From: an uncultured Candidatus Saccharibacteria bacterium
GTDB lineage: Bacteria > Patescibacteriota > Minisyncoccia > Phycocordibacterales > UBA9973
Reading direction: 5' to 3'
Assembly (NCBI GenBank): GCA_964527185.1
Contig: CAZGOI010000002.1
Span: forward strand, 197,532-261,531
DNA: 64,000 nt
The translations under genes and the position numbers were made by a program. Positions 37,205 through 64,000 of this stretch are shown here, piece by piece; positions within the stretch are counted from its first letter, which is position 1, and every line of letters starts with the position of its first letter. The notes beneath the pieces were generated by a model. That model had not been told where the DNA came from. It was given only the letters and a program-made list of their open reading frames with translations, and searched no databases.

Positions 37205-37459
37205 ATGTACTTCGTCTATGTTTTAAAAAGTAAAAAGGATCAAAGACTTTACTATGGTTCTACAGACAATCTTGAAAGAAGACTAGGAGAGCATAATAAA
37301 GGTAGAGTTAGGTCAACTAAATCAAGAATTCCTTTTGAATTGGAATATTTTGAGAAAGTTGATAGTATAATAGATGCGCGGAAGAAAGAAAGATATTTTA
37401 AAACAGGTTTTGGTAGGAAATACATAAAAAATAAACTGGCCCTATCGTCTAACGGTTAG
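37205..37459 (+). CDS. small GIY-YIG nuclease-domain protein
   Basis: 'YFVYVLKSKKDQRLYYGSTDNLERRLGEHNKG' gives the GIY...YIG...R...E...N motifs; 84 aa; the 3' end overlaps tRNA-Glu. Confidence 0.8.
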   Translation: MYFVYVLKSKKDQRLYYGSTDNLERRLGEHNKGRVRSTKSRIPFELEYFEKVDSIIDARKKERYFKTGFGRKYIKNKLALSSNG

Positions 37460-37509
37460 GACATCGGCTTTTCAAGCCGGTAATCCGGGTTCGATTCCCG
37501 GTAGGGTCA
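37438..37509 (+). tRNA. tRNA-Glu (anticodon TTC)
   Basis: Hand fold: acceptor GGCCCTA/TAGGGTC, anticodon stem TCGGC/GCCGG with loop TTTTCAA, T-arm CCGGG-TTCGATT-CCCGG. Confidence 0.85.
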
Positions 37510-37669
37510 CAAAAAGAAAAATCCAGTATCACTACTGGCATAATTATTATTTTTTTCATGTTATACACTATTTAAGATAATTTGTCAAGAGATATAATCA
37601 ATTATTGTTAAGTGGGTTTGATATGTTTTCTCGTAAAAAATTTGGGCAAATGCTAAAATAAACCCACAA

Positions 37670-39562: not shown

Positions 39563-39818
39563 AAAAGTCCTCCTGTGGAAACAGGAGGGCTCGGTTAATA
39601 TTTTGAGGATGAGTTCCCCAAAACAACAAAAACCACCACATATATAAAGAACTTTATTTGTGGGCACGCACCCGTTTTAGCCAACCTGTTTTAGATGCGT
39701 ACCCTTTTACCAAAACCAACTGGTGAGATATTACAATGTTTATCAAAAATATGCAAGGTTTAAATTGTTGATAATATAAAATAAATTCTATATAATACCG
39801 CAGACAAGGCACTTTTAG

Positions 39819-39905
39819 GGAAGCGTGGCTGAGTGGTTGAAGGCACCGCTCTCGAAAAGCGGCAGGGGCGAAAGTCTCTCGTGAGTTCAAATCTCACCGC
39901 TTCCG
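39819..39905 (+). tRNA. tRNA-Ser (anticodon CGA) with a long variable arm
   Basis: Acceptor GGAAGCG/CGCTTCC, D-loop GAGTGGTTGAA, anticodon stem CCGCT/AGCGG with loop CTCGAAA, long variable arm, T-arm GTGAG-TTCAAAT-CTCAC. Confidence 0.8.
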
Positions 39906-39907
39906 CA

Positions 39908-40001
39908 AGTAATGTAAACATTACGAGGACAGATTTGAAGGTCGGAGCGCGGCGGCGAGAGACGGGGTCGCGAAATTTTTCAGAAGAAAAATATTTGTGA
40001 A
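39908..40001 (+). repeat. conserved structured about 100-nt element, copy 1, flanked by 20-nt direct repeats of the tRNA-Ser 3' end
   Basis: CAAATCTCACCGCTTCCGCA occurs at 39888-39907 and 40002-40021. The insert has a perfect 6-bp hairpin GTAATG-TAAA-CATTAC and the core GGGGTCGCGAAATTTTTCAGAAGAAAAATATTTGTGA, which is shared with copy 2 at 57461. Confidence 0.5.
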
Positions 40002-40027
40002 CAAATCTCACCGCTTCCGCAGATTAT

Positions 40028-40100
40028 GCGCGGTTAGCTCAGTTGGTAGAGCGTCCCCTTGACGTGGGGAAGGCCACAGGTTCGAATCCTGTATCGCGCA
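40028..40100 (+). tRNA. tRNA-Val (anticodon GAC)
   Basis: Acceptor GCGCGGT/ATCGCGC, D-arm GCTC-AGTTGGTA-GAGC, anticodon stem GTCCC/GGGGA? with loop CTTGACG, T-arm CAGG-TTCGAAT-CCTG. Confidence 0.8.
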
Positions 40101-40286
40101 CAAAATAGCTTTATATTTCAAGCCTATTTGGCTTGACTTTTTGTTATATTTGTGATATGATTGAACCAGAAAATTGTACTTTGAAAGTAGTTGTTTTATG
40201 TTTGCTTTGAGGACAACTCTCGCCTTCCCTACCAAGGTTAGACTTGTTCTCAAAGTAAACAAATTTTTTTTAAAAAATAAAACAAC

Positions 40287-57317: not shown

Positions 57318-57335
57318 TTTAAAACCTCTATCAGA

Positions 57336-57362
57336 AAAAGCCCGCTCTGCGGGCTTTTTCTT
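57336..57362 (+). terminator. rho-independent terminator
   Basis: AAAAAGCCCGC-TCT-GCGGGCTTTTTCTTT. Confidence 0.75.
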
Positions 57363-57411
57363 TGCCTTTTGAGTCTTTTTTTGATAGTATATTTGGCATT
57401 CCAGAGTAGCT

Positions 57412-57528
57412 GAAATGCGAAGCATTTCAGAGGCGGACTTCGACCTTGGGTCGAGGAGCTGGGGTCGCGAAATTTTCTAGCAAGAAAATATTAGTGACCA
57501 GCGGTTCCGCTTTGCTACTCTAGAAACC
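57412..57528 (+). repeat. conserved structured about 100-nt element, copy 2, flanked by 16-nt direct repeats of the tRNA-Asn 5' end
   Basis: GCATTCCAGAGTAGCT (57396-57411) matches GCATTCCGGAGTAGCT (57529-57544). The insert has a perfect 8-bp hairpin TGAAATGC-GAA-GCATTTCA and the core GGGGTCGCGAAATTTTCTAGCAAGAAAATATTAGTGA. Confidence 0.5.
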
Positions 57529-57532
57529 GCAT

Positions 57533-57604
57533 TCCGGAGTAGCTCAGCGGTAGAGCAGTCGCCTGTTAAGCGATTGGTCGCAGGTTCGATCCCTGCCTCC
57601 GGAG
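57533..57604 (+). tRNA. tRNA-Asn (anticodon GTT) with a U1:A72 acceptor pair; CC of CCA encoded
   Basis: Acceptor TCCGGAG/CTCCGGA, D-arm GCTC-AGCGGTA-GAGC, anticodon stem GTCGC/GCGAT with loop CTGTTAA, T-arm GCAGG-TTCGATC-CCTGC, discriminator G then CC. Confidence 0.8.
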
Positions 57605-58205
57605 CCCTATAGGTTGGTTAGAAGTTGCAAGTATCTTGTCAAAGGGAGAACGCATTGAAAACACTAGGTTTTTTCCTTCTAACTGACAGTTCTGAAGTAG
57701 AAAATTAAGAAGTTGCCTTTTTTCAGGCACTTCAGAACTCTTGAAAATCTCAAGAGCTCTTTTTGCTATGTTTAGTATTGTATTTGCAATCAAATAGAAC
57801 TCTTCATCTGCTTCAGAGTGAATACTCATATCTGTGAGAATAGCACTTTGTCTTTCTTTGAACTCTTTCAATTTTCTGTCATACATTTCATCAGTAATTC
57901 GCCTCATACGATATACCATATTCGCCTATAATATTCTCAGCTAGTTTAGTATATTTATTATTTGTTGCAGTTTGAGCTTCTCGTTTTAGTTTCTCATATC
58001 TATCAGAAATTGAGTAAACCATAGGCAGTTTTCTGAAATTAGTTTCTTTATTTTTCTCTTTTTTCAGTAGTTTTATTTTATTAACAAATGGTTTGTTTTT
58101 CAATAATTCACTAAGATAAGAAACCATTTTTGTATTGGCTTTTGATTTTTTGCCGATAAAGTAATCTGGGTATTCAATATCAGATATATCTTTCATATTA
58201 TTCAC
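57566..58205 (-). pseudogene. two overlapping out-of-frame ORFs resembling the C-terminal region of a large serine recombinase (remnant); the 3' end reads antisense through tRNA-Asn
   Basis: ORFs 57891-58205 and 57566-57919 overlap by 29 nt in different frames. The distal C-terminus 'KRQLLNFLLQNCQLEGKNLVFSMRSPF' resembles the LSR C-terminal motif, and the last 13 codons are the reverse complement of the tRNA. No catalytic N-terminal domain is present. Confidence 0.3.
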
Positions 58206-58283
58206 TTTACTTTAGTTTACAATACTTAGCAACATTTTGTTGTATAAATACGCAAATTAAGTTATAATTCAGATACAAAAATT

Positions 58284-58751
58284 ATGGATAAAAATCATCA
58301 ATTATTAGCATATTTAGCTAAAGAACATCCTTCAGCTTCTATCACAGTATTGATGAAGCTCTCTTATTTAGTTGATCTTGTAAGCGTAAAAAAATTAGGT
58401 CAAAAGATTTCTTCTTTTGATTATATTCGTTATAGTTATGGTCCATTTGCTCAAGAGGTTTATGGTATTGTTGAGGACCTAACTCTTAAAAAAATACTCG
58501 CTACAAAAAATGATTATGCAGGTGGTAGTGTTGAATATATAACTTATACATTTACTAATTCTGAAGATTTTTCTTTTGATAAATTGTCAGAAGAAGAGGT
58601 TTCTGTAATAAATGAAATGATGTCTGAACTAAAGGGCTATGGTGCTAAAACTTTAACTGAAATAGCATACAAAACTAAACCTATGGTTGGTCTAGGTGCA
58701 ACGCTTGGTGGGACTGAGGGTCTTTTCAAAAAACTTGATCTAGCTCAATAA
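58284..58751 (+). CDS. Panacea (DUF4065)-domain protein, putative antitoxin-like
   Basis: 'SITVLMKLSYLVDLVSVKKLGQKISSFDYIRYSYGPFAQEVYGIV' matches the Panacea/SocA-GepA-like core (KLxKLxY...W..GPV...Y pattern). Confidence 0.5.
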   Translation: MDKNHQLLAYLAKEHPSASITVLMKLSYLVDLVSVKKLGQKISSFDYIRYSYGPFAQEVYGIVEDLTLKKILATKNDYAGGSVEYITYTFTNSEDFSFDKLSEEEVSVINEMMSELKGYGAKTLTEIAYKTKPMVGLGATLGGTEGLFKKLDLAQ

Positions 58752-58754
58752 TAT

Positions 58755-59261
58755 ATGCAGATGCCTGAAGCGGTTACTTTGATGTATTATCATCCTAGAA
58801 ATACATTTGCTGATAAAACTTCAGAAGAAGAAAGAACGGGTGTAATCAAAAAGAAATATAAGTTGTTATTCAAACAGCATAAAGAATTAGGTCTTTATGT
58901 GTTTTTTGTTTTGACTAGTAGTCCTTCTGCTTGTGTGAAGGAAAGAATGTTTTCTATAAATAAAACAGATTGGGAAGAAAGATTAGGAAACAGCTTAGAT
59001 GCTGATTGCTCATACACTGATATTCAAAGCCATTCAGTAGTTCACGATAAAAGCGAGGTTTTAGAAAAAGCCAGTAATCCTAAAATAGGTTTTTCTTATG
59101 TGGCTAAACTATATCAATCAAAGTTCAATGAATTATCCACTGCAATAGAAAACTATCTTTCTGCTACAACAGCAAAGACGGATATTGAAAAAAGAGATTT
59201 CTTAAAAAGTATTGTTCTTGAAGATAAAGCTACAGATTTTATCAATAAGTTTAAGGTTTAG
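58755..59261 (+). CDS. hypothetical protein, candidate toxin partner of the Panacea-domain gene
   Basis: 168 aa; starts 4 nt after the Panacea ORF stop; no recognisable motif. Confidence 0.35.
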   Translation: MQMPEAVTLMYYHPRNTFADKTSEEERTGVIKKKYKLLFKQHKELGLYVFFVLTSSPSACVKERMFSINKTDWEERLGNSLDADCSYTDIQSHSVVHDKSEVLEKASNPKIGFSYVAKLYQSKFNELSTAIENYLSATTAKTDIEKRDFLKSIVLEDKATDFINKFKV

Positions 59262-59340
59262 CTTCCAGTTTGCTGTATCTTGGAAAGAAGGTCATTATTT
59301 GGCTAAAACCTAATTCTTTTTGTATTTCTTTCCAGTTTAT

Positions 59341-59401
59341 AGTTCTGAACTCGGACAATACAGGGAGCCAACTTGACTTTTATATATTTTTATGCTACTA
59401 T
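59341..59401 (+). promoter_or_regulatory. operator-like inverted repeat plus sigma-70-type promoter (module copy 1)
   Basis: IR AGTTC-T-GAACT (59341-59351); -35 TTGACT (59373-59378), 17-nt spacer, -10 TACTAT (59396-59401). Confidence 0.45.
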
Positions 59402-59517
59402 ACGAATGTAGCGGCTCTTTGATATTAATGGTTGTTTATGATTGATTTTGTTGGGTTTTCCCTACACCTTTATAGGACTAGAGAAAACTCAATAATTCAA
59501 AAACTAAAACAATTAAA

Positions 59518-59976
59518 ATGAAAAAAATTCTTGATGAAGAAATCGTAATAAGCAATATCCAATACATCTATCCTGTATTACCTACAGGAGACGAATTAAG
59601 GATTGCACTAGGTGCACTATCTCTGACCAATCAAAAATCGAACGTCAATGATGATTGCCATCCAATGATAGTTGGGTGGAACGAAAACTCCGCAGTCGAT
59701 TTTGCTGACTTTCAATGGTGGATTAAGTGCCTCATTGAAGAAAGCCATTTTATTATTGGGAAGAAGATTATCACTTTTGCAGAAAAATTAGATCTGTACC
59801 CTGAGGAAGCTTGTGGAGAACCTTCTGTCACTTTAAAATTCAAAGACGGTACAATGTTCAGAATTACACAAAGAGACATCAGCAAGCCGATTGAAGTTTG
59901 CGTACGAGGCGATGGCCCAAATTTCCTGAAGATGAAAATTAAGGAATACGGGTACACTCCTATTCCTTTCGATTAA
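59518..59976 (+). CDS. hypothetical protein (152 aa), cassette 1
   Basis: ORF preceded by the module promoter and leader, followed by a terminator hairpin. Confidence 0.4.
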   Translation: MKKILDEEIVISNIQYIYPVLPTGDELRIALGALSLTNQKSNVNDDCHPMIVGWNENSAVDFADFQWWIKCLIEESHFIIGKKIITFAEKLDLYPEEACGEPSVTLKFKDGTMFRITQRDISKPIEVCVRGDGPNFLKMKIKEYGYTPIPFD

Positions 59977-60001
59977 ATTCATCTAAAATAGAAAATAATT
60001 T

Positions 60002-60031
60002 AAGTTCCTTGCCAAAACAAGGAACTTTTTA
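60002..60031 (+). terminator. rho-independent terminator after cassette 1
   Basis: AAGTTCCTTG-CCAAAA-CAAGGAACTT followed by TTTTT. Confidence 0.65.
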
Positions 60032-60072
60032 TATACATAGCTGATATAAAGTAAAAATGTTAATATTAATTA

Positions 60073-60600
60073 ATGGAATATTTGGATATCTGTGATGAAA
60101 AAGGAAATTTGACAGGAATCAAAGCTTTGAAAAAAGAAGCTCATGAGAAAGGCCTCTGGCATAGATCAGTTCATATCTGGATTTTAAACTCAAAAAATGA
60201 ATTATTAGTGCAAAAAAGATCTCCGTTAATGGATAACCATCCTAATGAGTGGGATATTTCAGCTGCAGGGCATGTATCAGCTGGAGAAGATAACATAACT
60301 TCTGCCTTACGAGAAACCGAAGAAGAACTTGGTTTAAAACTTTCTCCTGGAAATTTTACTCTCATTGGGACTATTCAACAAAGGTCTGCGCGTGAAGGAT
60401 ATATAAATAATGAAGTAAACCCTATCTATGTTGTTAAAATGGATTTAGATCTAAGTAATATAAAAAAGCAGGTAGAAGAAGTTTCAGAAGTAAAATTTAT
60501 TCCTTATCTTGAATTGAAAAAACTTATTGATAATAAAGACCCTTATTTTGTTAAACACCCTAGTGAGTACGAACTTCTTTTCAGTTATTTATCACAATAA
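60073..60600 (+). CDS. NUDIX hydrolase
   Basis: Nudix box 'GHVSAGEDNITSALRETEEELGL' (G-x5-E-x7-REUxEExGU). Confidence 0.8.
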   Translation: MEYLDICDEKGNLTGIKALKKEAHEKGLWHRSVHIWILNSKNELLVQKRSPLMDNHPNEWDISAAGHVSAGEDNITSALRETEEELGLKLSPGNFTLIGTIQQRSAREGYINNEVNPIYVVKMDLDLSNIKKQVEEVSEVKFIPYLELKKLIDNKDPYFVKHPSEYELLFSYLSQ

Positions 60601-60633
60601 AGCCATTCTAACTTCATCCCAGGTTCGGAGCAA

Positions 60634-60670
60634 TAAACAGAAACGGCACCTTTTGGTGCCTTTTCTGTTT
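60634..60670 (+). terminator. rho-independent terminator after the NUDIX gene
   Basis: AAACAGAAACGGCACC-TTTT-GGTGCCTTTTCTGTTT. Confidence 0.75.
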
Positions 60671-60770
60671 ATCTAACTCCGGGGTAAGAAAGCAAACTAC
60701 TTTGCTTTCGACAGGGATCGAAGGATTGATAATGTTTTATTTATAAAACTATCAATCACGCGCCGTGGGC

Positions 60771-60792
60771 GAGATTCCCTGCCTCCGGAGCC
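60771..60792 (+). repeat. direct repeat of the tRNA-Asn 3' end (att-like)
   Basis: CCCTGCCTCCGGAGCC (60777-60792) is identical to tRNA-Asn 57591-57606; the upstream GAGATTC resembles the T-loop. Confidence 0.6.
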
Positions 60793-60794
60793 AG

Positions 60795-60823
60795 TTGACA
60801 AATATATTAAATTATTCTATACT
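60795..60823 (+). promoter_or_regulatory. sigma-70-type promoter (module copy 2)
   Basis: -35 TTGACA (60795-60800), 17-nt spacer, -10 TATACT (60818-60823), immediately after the tRNA-like repeat. Confidence 0.45.
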
Positions 60824-60835
60824 AGAAACAGTATC

Positions 60836-60922
60836 GTAGTTCTTTGATATTTTTTGGTTATTTAGTTGTATTTGGTGGATTATCCTTGCTTCTTTTTAGG
60901 AGGTTAAGATAATTCACTAAAT
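60836..60922 (+). repeat. conserved 87-nt leader, copy A (near-identical to 61450-61536)
   Basis: GTAGTTCTTTGATATTTTTTGGTTATTTAGTTGTATTTGGTGGATTATCCTTGCTTCTTTTTAGGAGGTTAAGATAATTCACTAAAT, with 1 substitution relative to copy B. Confidence 0.7.
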
Positions 60923-60947
60923 AATTCACAATTAAATACCAAAAAAA

Positions 60948-61229
60948 ATGGATGCAAATCAATTTCCCAACGACAACGATTTAGTTAATCCTGAAGACCC
61001 TTACTCACCAACCGAAAAAGAGGTTCGTGAATATATGGAAATGGGATATAGTCGTTCAGGTGCAATATCTTCACTCACCACAACCAAAAAAAATCGTGAA
61101 GAAGAATACGACCCTTTTCAGGAAGGTGATGCTGAGGAAATGGATGCAATTCGTAACCCCCATGTATCAATGGAGGGTATGATGTTAAAAGTTAATCAGC
61201 ACTATGGACCACCTTCAAATGAGGACTAA
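60948..61229 (+). CDS. hypothetical acidic protein (93 aa) with a UBA-like motif, cassette 2
   Basis: 'EVREYMEMGYSRSGAISSL' resembles the UBA helix-1/2 consensus (..L.eMGF.r..a..AL); Asp/Glu-rich. Confidence 0.35.
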   Translation: MDANQFPNDNDLVNPEDPYSPTEKEVREYMEMGYSRSGAISSLTTTKKNREEEYDPFQEGDAEEMDAIRNPHVSMEGMMLKVNQHYGPPSNED

Positions 61230-61244
61230 GTCATTTTTATTTAA

Positions 61245-61288
61245 AGCCCTAAGCTTTGTAGAAAAACTCTACTTGCTAGGGCTTTTTC
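61245..61288 (+). terminator. rho-independent terminator after cassette 2
   Basis: AGCCCTAAGC ... GCTAGGGCT followed by TTTTT. Confidence 0.6.
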
Positions 61289-61296
61289 TATATTAT

Positions 61297-61417
61297 GAGT
61301 TCTGAAGTGTTCATCATTTGAAACATCTCAAAAATATTACTAAACTCAATATCTCTTTTAATTTGAACCCAGTTAAGAGTTCTGAACTCATCCACTAGTG
61401 GGAGCAAATACTTGACT
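61297..61417 (+). repeat. inter-cassette repeat (about 120 nt) carrying the IR operator and the -35 (copy 1)
   Basis: Starts TGAGTTCTGAAG, contains CATCTCAAAAATATTACTAAACTCAATATCTCTTTTAATTTGAACCCAGTTAAGAGTTCTGAACTCATCCACTAGTGGGAGCAAATACTTGACT. It is closely similar to 62101-62215. Confidence 0.6.
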
Positions 61418-61440
61418 TTTTATATATTTTATGCTATCAT
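61378..61440 (+). promoter_or_regulatory. operator-like inverted repeat plus promoter (module copy 3)
   Basis: IR GAGTTC-T-GAACTC (61378-61390); -35 TTGACT (61412-61417), 17-nt spacer, -10 TATCAT (61435-61440). Confidence 0.45.
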
Positions 61441-61449
61441 GCTCAGGTA

Positions 61450-61536
61450 GTAGTTCTTTGATATTTTTTGGTTATTTAGTTGTATTTGGTGGATTATCCT
61501 TGCTTCTTTTTTGGAGGTTAAGATAATTCACTAAAT
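61450..61536 (+). repeat. conserved 87-nt leader, copy B
   Basis: Near-identical to 60836-60922. Confidence 0.7.
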
Positions 61537-61559
61537 ATAAACAATTAAATAATCAAAAG

Positions 61560-62039
61560 ATGAACATAAGTAACAGAACAAAGAAGTATGCCGAGATGTT
61601 GAACTATCAAGGTCATAGGCATCCAGTAATTAAGGCATTGATAGTTGTTTTTGAAATACTTGATGATTACACAAGTAGAGTAAAAGCAGGAGAAGACGGA
61701 GACCGTTTTCTTTCAATGTTGGGAGGGCTGGAAAAAGCAGATAGGCAGAGTTTGGTCAAAAAAAGCAATCGTGCTTTCTGGGGACAGGGACATTTCACCA
61801 GCGAAAATACGTCAGAATTATTTGCTCTCATCGGAGTAACTGATGAAAAAGCAAAAGTTTTTGAAGGATATGATTTCATATGGGAAATATTTAGCTCAAA
61901 AGGAAATACTCCCGAAGAAATATTTTCAAATATGAGAACGGCTATGTCACCTCCTGCCAGATTCTTGTTGGAACAAACCTATGATTCCTTCAAGAATGAA
62001 ATGATTACAATGTATTATCGTTACTTCCAAGTAAGGTAA
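61560..62039 (+). CDS. hypothetical protein (159 aa), cassette 3
   Basis: ORF with the module promoter and leader upstream and a strong terminator downstream. Confidence 0.4.
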   Translation: MNISNRTKKYAEMLNYQGHRHPVIKALIVVFEILDDYTSRVKAGEDGDRFLSMLGGLEKADRQSLVKKSNRAFWGQGHFTSENTSELFALIGVTDEKAKVFEGYDFIWEIFSSKGNTPEEIFSNMRTAMSPPARFLLEQTYDSFKNEMITMYYRYFQVR

Positions 62040-62043
62040 AAAC

Positions 62044-62099
62044 AAATCCGCTTCAGTAGAAGGAAAATCCCTTCATTAAACTGAAGCGGATTTTCTTTT
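62044..62099 (+). terminator. rho-independent terminator after cassette 3
   Basis: 14-bp perfect stem AAATCCGCTTCAGT ... ACTGAAGCGGATTT followed by TCTTTT. Confidence 0.75.
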
Positions 62100-62100
62100 A

Positions 62101-62215
62101 TGAGTTCTGAAACCCTGCTACAGGAAATGTCTCAAAAATCTTAGAAAACTCAATATCTCTTTTAATTTTAACCCAATTAAGAGTTCTGAACTTGTCCACT
62201 AGGGGGAGCATTTTT
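62101..62215 (+). repeat. inter-cassette repeat, copy 2 (degenerate, no intact promoter)
   Basis: TGAGTTCTGAAACC...CTCAATATCTCTTTTAATTTTAACCCAATTAAGAGTTCTGAACTTGTCCACTAGGGGGAGCA. Confidence 0.55.
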
Positions 62216-62221
62216 ATAAAA

Positions 62222-62258
62222 TAAAAAACCTCATCACATCACTATGATTAGGTTTTTA
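62222..62258. terminator. bidirectional terminator hairpin
   Basis: AACCTCATCA-catcactatga-TGATTAGGTT with T-runs on both strands. Confidence 0.5.
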
Positions 62259-62277
62259 ACTTAAAGTTCTGTATTAA

Positions 62278-62628
62278 CTATACGAAGTTATTTTCGTACC
62301 ATTTCTGCCTTTGATCCATTTTTCCTCTTCGGTCGTAATTACAAAATTTAGCTACTGCGTCCATAAATTTTTCGAAAATACTGTTGCTCGCAGAAGCATC
62401 ATCTTTATTTTTTTCTCGATTCTCCACATACCATTTTAATGGATTTTGCTTTTTGATAAGACCCAACTCTATTTGCATAAAATCGTCAGGAATTTCAAAA
62501 AAGTTTTCCGATTTTATCTGAGGAGGGATTTGAAGGCAAAATGTTCCCATTCTGTATGTAGCGTCCTCAGACTGGAACTCAATTACTTCATGTCCACCTA
62601 TATGTGAACTTATTAATTTAATGAGCAT
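62278..62628 (-). CDS. hypothetical protein (116 aa)
   Basis: ORF only. Confidence 0.35.
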   Translation of the reverse strand: MLIKLISSHIGGHEVIEFQSEDATYRMGTFCLQIPPQIKSENFFEIPDDFMQIELGLIKKQNPLKWYVENREKNKDDASASNSIFEKFMDAVAKFCNYDRRGKMDQRQKWYENNFV

Positions 62629-62733
62629 AGCGTTTATTTTTTAGTTTACAAATAATCTATCATAAAATAATCTTTTGTAAATACCACTGGTTCTGAAACA
62701 GTTGAACTGGAAACACATCAAAAATCTTAGGTT

Positions 62734-63867
62734 TTAGAATTTCACAGTAAGTGGCGAGCCAAGACCAGTGACATAATCGTAATGAGCTCGGGCTTCGCAA
62801 TAATAACCGCAGTTACCGTTTGATCCGTTTTTAATATCTCTAAAAAATTTAGTGGGAGAATTGGAAGATTTATCAGTATAAAATTTTTCGTTACCAGTTG
62901 AAAGTCCGAGTGACTGGATAGCTGCCCATTGTGGGGCAGCAGCGCTAGTGCCACCGACTACATACCAATTGCCATGCCTATAAACTGGAAAACCTGATTT
63001 CGGATCTGCGTCGTAAGAAACATCAGGAATCGAACGCATTCCATTAGCACGAGGAATCGCATAGCTATTTTGATAATTAGGTTGTTTTTCGTAAGCACTT
63101 ACTCCTCCACCCGAACCATTCCAAGCCAATTCTTTTAAAAAAGATCCATGCGAGTCAAATGTCAGACTAGTGCCACCGACAGCCACTACAAATGGTGATG
63201 CAGCAGGCCAACTAGCTCCAGTGCCATTGTCTCCCGAGGCGGCAAAGAAAACCGCGCCAAAGTTACTTTGAAAATGTGAGTCGAGCGATAGTTCTTCTGG
63301 AAATTCTGCTCCGCCGAAACTCATAGATATTGCTACTGTATTTGGATTATTGCGGGCATAATCAATGGCGTCTAAAAGATTTTTTCCGGATGGAGTTTTT
63401 GCTTCTACCAAAAGAATTTTTGCCAAAGGGGCAATAGCATGGGCCCACTCTACATCGAGTGAGGTTTCCATAGCCCAGCCACTGTTCGTTTTCGTGTCTT
63501 TTGCCATCAGGTGTTTTTCGAAACAACTATTTGTAACAGTACACGAAGGTAGGTTAAATTGAGAACTGAATACATTCAGGTCTTTTTCGATTGTACTATC
63601 GTCATAAGCTCCGATAATAGCTATGGTTCCTTGCCCGCCACTATCAGGCAGATTGTAAATTTTTTTAATTATATCTGGCGAGATTCCTTTTGGGGTGTTA
63701 GTTGCTTTACCATACACATGAATTGGATGTTTAGCTTTGAAATTGTTAAAATGATAATCCGCCAAAGCGAATTGAGGTATACAAAAACTCAAAACTATAA
63801 TAATCAAATAAAATTTTCTCATTGTTTTATAAACTTTAACATAAAGGGAAGATTTTTTATTTACCAA
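62734..63867 (-). CDS. secreted S53 (sedolisin)/S8-like serine peptidase
   Basis: Signal peptide; 'GTIAIIGAYDD', 'ASGDNGTGA', 'VGGTSAAAPQWAAIQSL' match the subtilase-clan SB Asp/Ser motifs, and the SGD motif favours S53. Confidence 0.65.
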   Translation of the reverse strand: MVNKKSSLYVKVYKTMRKFYLIIIVLSFCIPQFALADYHFNNFKAKHPIHVYGKATNTPKGISPDIIKKIYNLPDSGGQGTIAIIGAYDDSTIEKDLNVFSSQFNLPSCTVTNSCFEKHLMAKDTKTNSGWAMETSLDVEWAHAIAPLAKILLVEAKTPSGKNLLDAIDYARNNPNTVAISMSFGGAEFPEELSLDSHFQSNFGAVFFAASGDNGTGASWPAASPFVVAVGGTSLTFDSHGSFLKELAWNGSGGGVSAYEKQPNYQNSYAIPRANGMRSIPDVSYDADPKSGFPVYRHGNWYVVGGTSAAAPQWAAIQSLGLSTGNEKFYTDKSSNSPTKFFRDIKNGSNGNCGYYCEARAHYDYVTGLGSPLTVKF

Positions 63868-64000
63868 TTTAATCTATTTTTAGCATTTTATTCTTGGTCA
63901 ACTAGATATGTTTGCAGAAAGGTTTCTATCGCAATTATCGTACCGTCTTTAAGGTGAGCATTACTTTCTGCTACCCATTTCGCAAAATTATATAGCTCTT

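Follow-up and report, generated by a model that had tools for sequence, protein, structure and literature searches.

A widespread structured RNA family at tRNA, tmRNA, 5S rRNA and topA genes of Patescibacteria and Elusimicrobiota that may behave as a small intron with a twin 3′ exon

A 64,000-nucleotide (nt) stretch of contig CAZGOI010000002.1 from an uncultured Candidatus Saccharibacteria bacterium (positions 197,532 to 261,531, forward strand), referred to here as the window, contains two copies of a small element that lies at transfer RNA (tRNA) genes and is bracketed by duplicated tRNA termini. It is nearly certain that these copies belong to a real, widespread and undescribed family of structured RNAs, which also occurs at transfer-messenger RNA (tmRNA), 5S ribosomal RNA (rRNA) and topA genes. 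Judged from sequence comparison, the family most likely behaves as a new small intron that carries a twin of its 3′ exon, a reading in which our confidence is about even. The most cautious reading is that of a very widespread, strongly conserved structured RNA that is listed in no database.

A conserved RNA family and its host genes

A search of GTDB contigs (one genome per species) with the pattern GGGTCGCGAAA-N12-22-TATTNGTGA returned at least 120 stretches, five of which (L012, L055, L070, L080 and L100) are chance matches in coding DNA and were set aside. Loci are denoted by L numbers, and all locus counts are among the matches listed, which comprise at least 115 true matches, each from a different species genome; the element of which the earlier note on this DNA had seen two copies thus exists in far more than two. 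The true members share far more than the search pattern itself. They come from Saccharibacteria, Paceibacterota, other Patescibacteria, several Elusimicrobiota and a few unclassified or Atribacteria-labelled metagenome-assembled genomes, and a search of viral contigs for the family gave no match.

A covariance model (R1; 83 model positions, 19 pairs) built from a 22-sequence seed (A2) gives 111 matches in 100 loci. The consensus of the core is GNC-GSA-(hairpin)-GA-GNC-G-GGGUCGCGAAA-(hairpin)-UAUUYGUGAC. From 5′ to 3′, the element comprises an arm that forms the 5′ strand of helix P1, 1-2 nt, the freely covarying P2a (3 bp), G-S-A, hairpin H2 (10-60 nt), G-A and P2a′, followed by G(GG), GUCGC, GAA, hairpin H3, AUUY, GUGAC and a tail that forms the 3′ strand of P1. 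The fold is a three-way junction of P1, P2 and P3, in which P2 contains a GSA/GA internal loop, and P3, which terminates in GUGAC, has a GCGAAA/UAUUY internal loop. In the 111 sequences, 94.5% of the cells are paired, compared with 75% in shuffles and at most 50% in partner-slid controls, and double-sided changes are observed in 16 of the 19 pairs, with 367 compensatory cells. P3 is nearly invariant, and a G.U pair is present in all 108 of 108 sequences. The covariance matches and the covariation bear out the earlier note's proposal of one conserved structured element at tRNA ends with duplicated termini.

Upstream of the arm, a hairpin (H0) with a CUGC tetraloop (..AACUGCUU..) is found in 38 of 103 elements. 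The CUGC loop is commoner in elements with a P2 loop of GCAG or ACAG (23 of 41) than in those with GGAG or GGAA (12 of 47), and this CUGC:GCAG enrichment hints at a loop-loop contact between H0 and P2; strict covariation is absent. The internal loops were also inspected as K-turn, loop E and tetraloop-receptor motifs, none of which matches the consensus.

The element does not correspond to a known Rfam family, a possibility that had been raised in the earlier note. Rfam 15 (4227 models, among them group I and group II introns, hammerhead, hairpin, twister, twister-sister, pistol, hatchet, HDV-like, tRNA-like and tmRNA) at the gathering threshold reports just four tRNAs in the window, and at E values up to 10 the core remains uncovered in both element regions, save for one 14.5-bit noise match; the topA-linked element of L114 has no match at E≤1. 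Additionally, no description of the family was found in the literature by sequence string or by topic, including discovery papers from the Breaker laboratory.

The element is strictly oriented with respect to its hosts: the nearest tRNA shares the strand of the element in 101 cases, with a single exception on the opposite strand. Among the 188 tRNAs in the loci, 84 have an element within 160 nt downstream and 17 have one upstream. The host tRNAs represent more than 20 anticodon classes, and more than 25 different host genes occur overall, which requires some past mobility. Most but not all copies are linked to tRNAs; further hosts are tmRNA genes with the element on their 3′ side (L022, L024 and L044), a 5S rRNA gene (L009) and topA. 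The nearest relative of a copy lies in another genome in 28 of 36 multi-copy cases, and copies within one genome are usually distant paralogues. Recent duplication is limited to one Elusimicrobiota genome (JAJUJA01), whose copies are mutual nearest relatives, and to tandem arrays, with tandem units present in L075, L061, L036 and L071. In 14 of 88 cases (2.4 expected), a copy and its nearest relative have the same tRNA anticodon, which, together with the distant paralogues, fits long residence with rare spread.

Two of the loci have additional features. In L071 (1-160, minus strand), the second tandem unit stops exactly after GGGGTCGCG and is followed by an unrelated hairpin, AGTCTGTTTTAT..ATAAAACAGACT; a rearrangement or a further insertion within the core could account for this break. 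In L009 (654-815, minus strand, between 23S and 5S), a tRNA with a 162-nt Rfam match contains an insertion of approximately 88 nt in its anticodon arm. This insertion has no R1 match and therefore represents another kind of small tRNA insertion within that rRNA operon.

Two layouts can be distinguished. In the downstream type, the strand immediately 5′ of the core is antisense to the host 3′ region (X1), with 19-21 bp in L006 and L033, and the tail after GUGAC is a direct copy (X2) of that region, which extends to the tRNA 3′ end. X2 starts at the T-loop residue C56 in 26 of 32 clear tRNA cases and otherwise at approximately N72-73, and the direct repeats, whose length varies from 7 to more than 70 nt, begin at set positions of the host. 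The state of X2 is bimodal: all 18 of 18 residues from C56 to N73 are identical in 8 of 16 parsed cases, including the window, and X2 is truncated or decayed in the rest. At the tmRNA loci, the arm is split around H0 into an acceptor-antisense and a T-arm-antisense part. In the upstream type, the core and a hairpin H1 interrupt a truncated tRNA copy in its D-arm or T-loop, and an intact tRNA follows; this type includes copy 2 of the window, L014 and L113 (tRNA-Asn), five tRNA-Ser(GGA) loci, L059, L120 and L046.

The tRNA-Asp(GTC) genes of L006, L051 and L076 have an unusual T-arm, GGGGUCAGCACCC, whereas the remaining tRNAs of the loci carry the usual ..GGUUCGAAUCC.. type. It is precisely this uncommon loop that the arm is antisense to, which indicates a true antisense relationship rather than a copy of the 5′ strand of the T-stem. 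Two further readings of the flanks were considered. A model in which the duplicate serves as a toggling decoy loses support, since the real terminus is by far the better match for the arm and many decoys have decayed. A ribozyme that makes the tRNA 3′ end was rejected, as the position of the junction differs between the two types (C56 versus approximately N72).

The duplicated end of topA and the copies in the window

The decisive evidence, which suggests processing, comes from ten loci with a protein-coding host, namely L069, L094 and L114 from GTDB and seven metagenome contigs found by a tail-specific pattern. We take the host gene to be topA on the basis of its C-terminal zinc-ribbon repeats (..GRFG.F.SCSNYP.CK..MMEGTKTIPERC..), which resemble those of topoisomerase I. 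The gene runs through X1 to its own stop codon and is followed by a hairpin, the arm, the core and then X2, which directly after GUGAC re-encodes the C-terminus KTIPERCS[D/N]K.CP.H.P.KL with a short tail and a stop codon. In the unprocessed RNA, the UGA of GUGA stands in the X2 frame immediately before X2, and no start codon is present. X2 is in frame with exon 1 only upon removal of the sequence from the X1 start to GUGAC, which would join the end of exon 1, ..ATGATGGAAGG[C/G]A (..GG[C/G]A), to the CAAAGAC.. of the downstream copy.

Comparison of X1 with X2 in seven genomes (20 codons each) reveals 64 identical, 63 synonymous and 13 nonsynonymous codons, where approximately 64 amino-acid changes are expected at random. 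In L114, 6 codons are identical, 14 are synonymous and none is nonsynonymous (16 nt differences), and the peptide is left unchanged in 0 of 200,000 simulations. Between L125 and L127, X1 has 12 identical, 10 synonymous and 1 nonsynonymous codons, and X2 has 13 identical, 10 synonymous and 1-2 nonsynonymous codons. The non-coding part of the element is 74% identical between these two loci, which implies that the insertion predates their split and that X2 has been under protein-level selection since. X2 is lost in L069 only. The tails encoded by X1 and X2 differ in some genomes, for example ..KLMK versus ..KLNQIK. As X2 is under purifying selection and is in frame only after the removal, the simplest explanation is that X2 is translated after 175-241 nt have been removed from some transcripts, and that unprocessed transcripts use X1.

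The arm of the topA elements is antisense to the upstream boundary, where it covers approximately 2 nt of exon 1 and 7-11 nt of X1 (about -2 to +9), and it covaries with synonymous changes at this boundary (L094, CACAAAAACCA/UGGUUUUUGUG; L122, CACCAAAACCA/UGGUUUUGGUG; also L125). Separately, L069 and L127 are 98% identical (127/129) in the non-coding part of the element, compared with 83% in X1 and 93% in exon 1, a contrast that could reflect either very strong constraint or a recent exchange of the element between lineages.

Both copies in the window lie on the plus strand. In copy 1, a promoter-like site, TTGATA-17-TATAAT (39768-39796; sigma-70-like, 11 of 12 consensus matches, called by consensus match alone), precedes the gene for tRNA-Ser(CGA) (39819-39906). 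The 20-nt direct repeat CAAATCTCACCGCTTCCGCA is found at 39888-39907, where it forms X1 (T-loop C56 to the 3′ end of tRNA-Ser, plus CA), and again at 40002-40021, where it forms X2 (20/20 identical), with 94 nt between the two. This interval contains the peripheral H0 hairpin GTAATG-TAAA-CATTAC (39909-39924) and the arm AGATTTG (39931-39937), read from the sequence as antisense to the X start CAAATCT and as the P1 5′ strand; upstream of this stretch the arm has decayed, with 11/15 positions matching the antisense of X. The P2 domain (39941-39963) follows, with P2a GUC/GAC, internal loop GGA/GA and hairpin H2 (39947-39958), and then the P3 domain (39964-40001), with GGG, GUCGC, GAA, hairpin H3 (39975-39992), AUUU and GUGAA. 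The earlier note had described the insert, its perfect repeats, the hairpin and the core of copy 1 correctly. The gene for tRNA-Val(GAC) (40028-40101) starts 7 nt past X2, and a terminator-like hairpin with a T-run (40118-40145), the sole such site there, closes the unit. Since the promoter precedes tRNA-Ser and the only terminator follows tRNA-Val, the insert is the spacer of a two-tRNA transcription unit; no promoter-like site was found inside either window element.

If the element is an intron, nt 1-55 of tRNA-Ser (39819-39887) would be exon 1, X1 would be the first 20 nt of the intervening sequence, and X2 would serve both as the alternative 3′ exon and as the 3′ strand of P1. The predicted boundaries lie between 39887 and 39888 and between 40001 and 40002, with the putative 3′ splice site directly after 40001, and both routes would yield the same tRNA-Ser.

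Copy 2 is located in the tRNA-Asn unit, the start of which is marked by a terminator-like hairpin of the upstream gene (57333-57371). An upstream copy of the leader and of nt 1-12 of tRNA-Asn, GCATTCCAGAGTAGCT (57396-57411), is separated by a 117-nt insert from GCATTCCGGAGTAGCT (57529-57544), which consists of the leader and the first 12 nt of the intact tRNA-Asn(GTT) gene (57532-57607). The insert length agrees with the earlier note; the 16-nt repeat is identical at 15 of 16 positions and not perfect, the coordinates are slightly shifted, and the long-range helix that closes the copy, CCAGAGTAGC (57401-57410) with GCTACTCTAG (57514-57523), is present with one mismatch. Directly 5′ of the core lies the H1 hairpin TGAAATGC-GAA-GCATTTCA (57411-57429), which is typical of copies upstream of a tRNA. 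The P2 domain (57432-57460; from the model alignment) has P2a GGC/GCU, internal loop GGA/GA and hairpin H2 (57438-57455), and the P3 domain (57461-57498) has GGG, GUCGC, GAA, hairpin H3, AUUA and GUGAC. The tail (57499-57523) begins with CAGCGGT (tRNA-Asn nt 13-19) and continues with a strand antisense to tRNA-Asn nt 1-17 (..GCTACTCTAG), a layout also found in L014 and L113. Copy 2 is a family member within a truncated upstream duplicate of the tRNA-Asn 5′ end, and its role is less clear.

The recurrence of the core in copy 2, as previously noted, is borne out: the shared core is 80% identical over 45 nt, and the pattern GGGGTCGCGAAATTTT occurs exactly twice in the window. The core hairpins of the two copies differ by two compensatory changes (UC/GA versus CU/AG) in a helix that covaries across the 111 sequences. 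A covariance model from other genomes detects copy 1 at 39929-40010 with 83.0 bits (E 6e-20) and copy 2 at 57420-57507 with 65.5 bits (E 2.4e-15), and the third-best match in the window reaches only 12 bits. The RNA-fold z-scores relative to shuffles are -4.0 and -7.0 for copies 1 and 2, respectively.

The intron reading and its alternatives

In the reading that we favor, the element would reside within the host transcript, with X1 as the working copy of the host 3′ end and X2 after GUGAC. Unprocessed transcripts would use X1, either as an ordinary tRNA 3′ end or as the TopA C-terminus with its own stop codon; in processed transcripts, the sequence from the X1 start to GUGAC would be removed and exon 1 joined to X2, which would give the same product. 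The arm would act as an internal guide that pairs with the sequence after either boundary and presents both sites to one core, a single arm being sufficient because X1 and X2 are nearly the same. The right boundary would lie on the continuous strand between P3 and P1, and the chemistry may be RNA self-cleavage and ligation, or cleavage followed by a host ligase. Such an intron would explain the antisense arm, the direct repeat with its fixed start, the sense orientation, the bimodal state of X2 (kept where processing matters and lost elsewhere) and the choice of hosts, namely stable RNAs that are not translated and the 3′ end of a gene. Old, vertically inherited copies would be expected to conserve the core strictly if a dead core in a read-through transcript were harmful. 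Additionally, the selection on X2 of topA suggests that the downstream flank is expressed in continuity with exon 1, as is expected of any intron.

In its full form, which we advance tentatively and with somewhat less than even confidence, this reading describes a third kind of bacterial intron: a protein-less intervening sequence of 100-240 nt, with a three-way-junction core of approximately 70 nt that would be a new ribozyme or would act together with a host ligase, one guide arm for two identical boundary sequences, and a 3′-exon twin through which both spliced and unspliced RNAs are functional, widespread in tRNA, tmRNA, 5S rRNA and topA genes of Patescibacteria and Elusimicrobiota. If this is true, the family would be a new class of bacterial intervening sequence and probably a new small ribozyme, the twin exon would be a previously unseen way of making an insertion into essential genes harmless, and protein genes of the Candidate Phyla Radiation could have alternatively spliced 3′ ends. 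For annotation, duplicated tRNA ends, "pseudo-tRNAs" and extra C-terminal ORF (open reading frame) fragments would then be parts of one element.

Several observations weigh against an intron. Splicing is deduced from a single line of evidence, the selection on X2, and both exon copies could also be kept coding by mobile DNA that goes through repeated integration and excision, in the manner of phage 21/e14 at icd. Known self-splicing introns are all far larger than the core, and we know of no chemical precedent. X2 is short or decayed in many tRNA hosts, where removal of the element is therefore not needed. The arm:X1 duplex of tRNA hosts has a mean energy of -20.5 kcal/mol versus -11.5 kcal/mol for shuffled arms, a comparison biased by the greater length of the X1 window, into which part of H0 falls. 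The tmRNA loci have a canonical intrinsic terminator between the tmRNA 3′ end and the arm, inside the putative intron (L022, 5670-5720; L024, 4323-4370; L044, 5085-5134), and most transcripts may therefore never contain the core. In L039 (4256-4337, minus strand) and L107 (2830-2911, plus strand), the element is antisense to the rRNA operon, where it cleanly interrupts (GGGUG^UGACC) a partial antisense copy of 5S beside the intact 5S gene. Finally, the upstream-type copies reside in truncated pseudo-copies, the joined flanks of which would give no tRNA; for copy 2 of the window, joining would produce a hairpin (57401-57410 + CAGCGG / CCGCU + 57514-57523).

A DNA-level integrative or mobile element that involves no RNA splicing is unlikely. 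Such an element would be tiny and non-autonomous and would bring a replacement 3′ end (X1), with X2 as the displaced host end and the core as folded single-stranded DNA or a protein-binding recombination site. The succession of intact gene, element and displaced partial copy is the classic attL/attR layout at the classic integration targets, the 3′ ends of tRNA, tmRNA and protein genes, and the tandem units (one of them truncated), the two reverse-orientation copies, the high identity of the L069 and L127 elements relative to their X1 and the mutual nearest relatives in JAJUJA01 (Elusimicrobiota) are as expected of a mobile DNA. However, a displaced end should decay, whereas X2 is under purifying selection across speciation as the element diverges down to 74% identity. 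When the 587 ORFs that lie up to 2.5 kb from an element (approximately 115 loci) are clustered all versus all, only housekeeping families emerge, each in at most 8 loci, with no recurrent integrase or transposase, and the viral contigs contain no copy. The 101:1 co-orientation, the invariant G.U pair, the RNA-type covariation and the host-antisense arm point to RNA. A cycle of integration and excision is consequently rated lower than the intron, as no recombinase is present, the structure is RNA-like and X2 is constrained while linked to a diverging element. Of the three candidates in the earlier note, a miniature inverted-repeat transposable element (MITE) with unusually long target-site duplications at tRNA ends is largely refuted and now highly improbable. 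The 16-20-nt direct repeats at both window inserts and the many host genes had spoken for it, but the repeats start at the fixed C56 and end at the tRNA 3′ end, and the host-specific arm inside the element makes target-site duplication insufficient as an explanation. The topA repeats of approximately 70 nt, diverged at synonymous sites only (about half of them) and both in frame, are maintained exon copies rather than fill-in duplications. The element has no terminal inverted repeats of its own, no fixed short target-site duplications, no transposase copy and no near-identical copies of the kind that define MITEs and insertion sequences, its within-genome copies being old paralogues. A second candidate, a promoter or regulatory DNA module that tRNA genes share, had in its favor that a tRNA gene begins at most 35 nt past both window copies; it has virtually no probability left, since the position of the copies and their covariation refute it. 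tRNA-Ser has a good promoter of its own upstream, so that the element is inside the unit, 84 of the 101 tRNA-linked copies lie downstream of their tRNA, many copies precede terminators or protein genes, the covariation is of the RNA type, and the element does not have the features of a sigma-70 promoter module.

The third candidate, a tRNA-linked small non-coding RNA or processing element, came closest of the three. Two RNA-level alternatives to an intron were also considered. A host-encoded cis-acting switch for stable-RNA maturation, in which the arm pairs with the real terminus (and blocks its folding or processing) or with the decoy (and frees it) while the core decides, for example via a ligand or protein, is distinctly unlikely. 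It would suit the long stretch over which the arm is complementary to the real terminus (as much as 19-21 bp, in L006 and L033), the presence of a decoy beyond the core in downstream-type and upstream-type copies alike, the strict co-orientation and co-transcription, and the long persistence seen in the shared anticodons of nearest relatives. It leaves unexplained the coding conservation of topA X2, which extends 60-75 nt beyond the arm-pairing region, the pseudo-tRNA elements that have no antisense arm (L120 and L046) and the antisense 5S cases, and the decoy has decayed in many copies with an intact core. It is improbable that the family is a trans-acting small RNA on a stable-RNA scaffold, with the core as the functional part (e.g., a protein platform) and a terminal helix that recruits RNase P, RNase Z and CCA-adding enzymes and stabilizes the RNA. 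The arm and X2 would form a minihelix resembling an acceptor/T-stem, X2 ends at CCA in L108, L067 and L066, L009 resembles a separate unit with its own -10-like box and terminator, and cores are inserted at elbow positions of pseudo-tRNAs; yet no minihelix can form where the tail copies only the last 3 tRNA nt and the trailer (e.g., L008 and L047), the in-frame coding conservation of topA is unexplained, and there is no reason for a scaffold always to copy its immediate neighbor.

Among known systems, the element comes closest to a group I intron in its proposed working and to a small junction ribozyme in its appearance, and its layout is that of an integrative element. Bacterial group I introns (RF00028) occur in tRNA, tmRNA and rRNA genes, have a P3-P9 fold and are typically at least 200 nt long. 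The family shares with them a protein-less structured intervening RNA, the same host classes in sense orientation, variable peripheral hairpins and long vertical persistence with occasional spread, and the arm at the upstream boundary corresponds to an internal guide, a resemblance that is functional only. In contrast, its core is a three-way junction of approximately 60-110 nt with no P3-P7/P4-P6 core and no RF00028 match, its sites are the T-loop, D-arm and 3′ end rather than the anticodon loop, it carries a duplicate of the 3′ exon, so that unspliced RNA would also be functional, and its splicing is inferred. Group II introns are distinguished by six domains, domain V and often a reverse transcriptase ORF; the element has no corresponding Rfam match and no ORF.

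Small junction ribozymes (the hairpin and hammerhead, and engineered twin-ribozyme or trans-splicing forms) are similarly small, with two arms on one junction and recognition of the substrate by flanking base pairing. Each arm has a conserved purine-rich internal loop, GAAA/UAUU recalling loop B of the hairpin ribozyme, and the putative cut site is placed as in the hammerhead, on the strand that runs uninterrupted from one helix to the next in a three-way junction. The resemblance is one of architecture; the conserved sequences of the hammerhead (CUGANGA..GAAA) and hairpin (AGAA / N-GUC) ribozymes are absent, and no Rfam ribozyme matches at E=10. Islands that target tRNA and tmRNA genes, as well as phage 21 and e14 at icd, carry a replacement 3′ end of the target gene. 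The family resembles these in the intact gene followed by a displaced partial 3′ copy, in the target classes, in the direct repeat of the target 3′ end at both junctions, as in tyrosine-integrase elements, and in protein-gene copies that differ mainly at synonymous sites. It differs in that no integrase is encoded within the 100-240 nt or recurs nearby as a helper, the conserved part is of the RNA type, and the downstream copy is selected while linked across speciation. Archaeal bulge-helix-bulge introns occur at non-canonical tRNA positions and are joined by RtcB. They are likewise found in the T-loop and D-arm of tRNAs and in a few mRNAs and rRNAs, with sites set by intron-exon pairing and suggested mobility among tRNA genes; the present family differs in its bacterial hosts, the absence of a bulge-helix-bulge motif, a conserved core in place of an endonuclease signal and the duplicated exon. 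It fails the defining tests of each known family compared, and it is regarded as a new kind of element.

Other features of the window

The window has the character of a Patescibacteria-like genome. It contains four tRNAs, and its protein genes include a T4SS-pilin domain protein, fmt and HisRS. The best relatives of the neighboring G6PD are from Saccharimonadales and Paceibacterota at approximately 50% identity, with none above 53%. Immediately after tRNA-Asn, the region 58000-64000 has a low GC content (0.32-0.37, compared with approximately 0.41) and may be an island. An attR-type repeat of the tRNA-Asn 3′ end was sought in this downstream region and was not found. Its genes encode a SocA/Panacea antitoxin-domain protein (58284-58751) and a NUDIX protein (60073-60600), and it contains direct repeats at 60836-60923 and 61450-61537 (99% identical) and at 59283, 61320 and 62124 (87 nt).

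Additionally, an 84-amino-acid stand-alone ORF with a GIY-YIG nuclease domain (37205-37459, plus strand; PF01541, E 2.7e-15) ends inside the 5′ end of tRNA-Glu (37438-37510), and could be a small URI/homing-endonuclease-like gene beside a tRNA.

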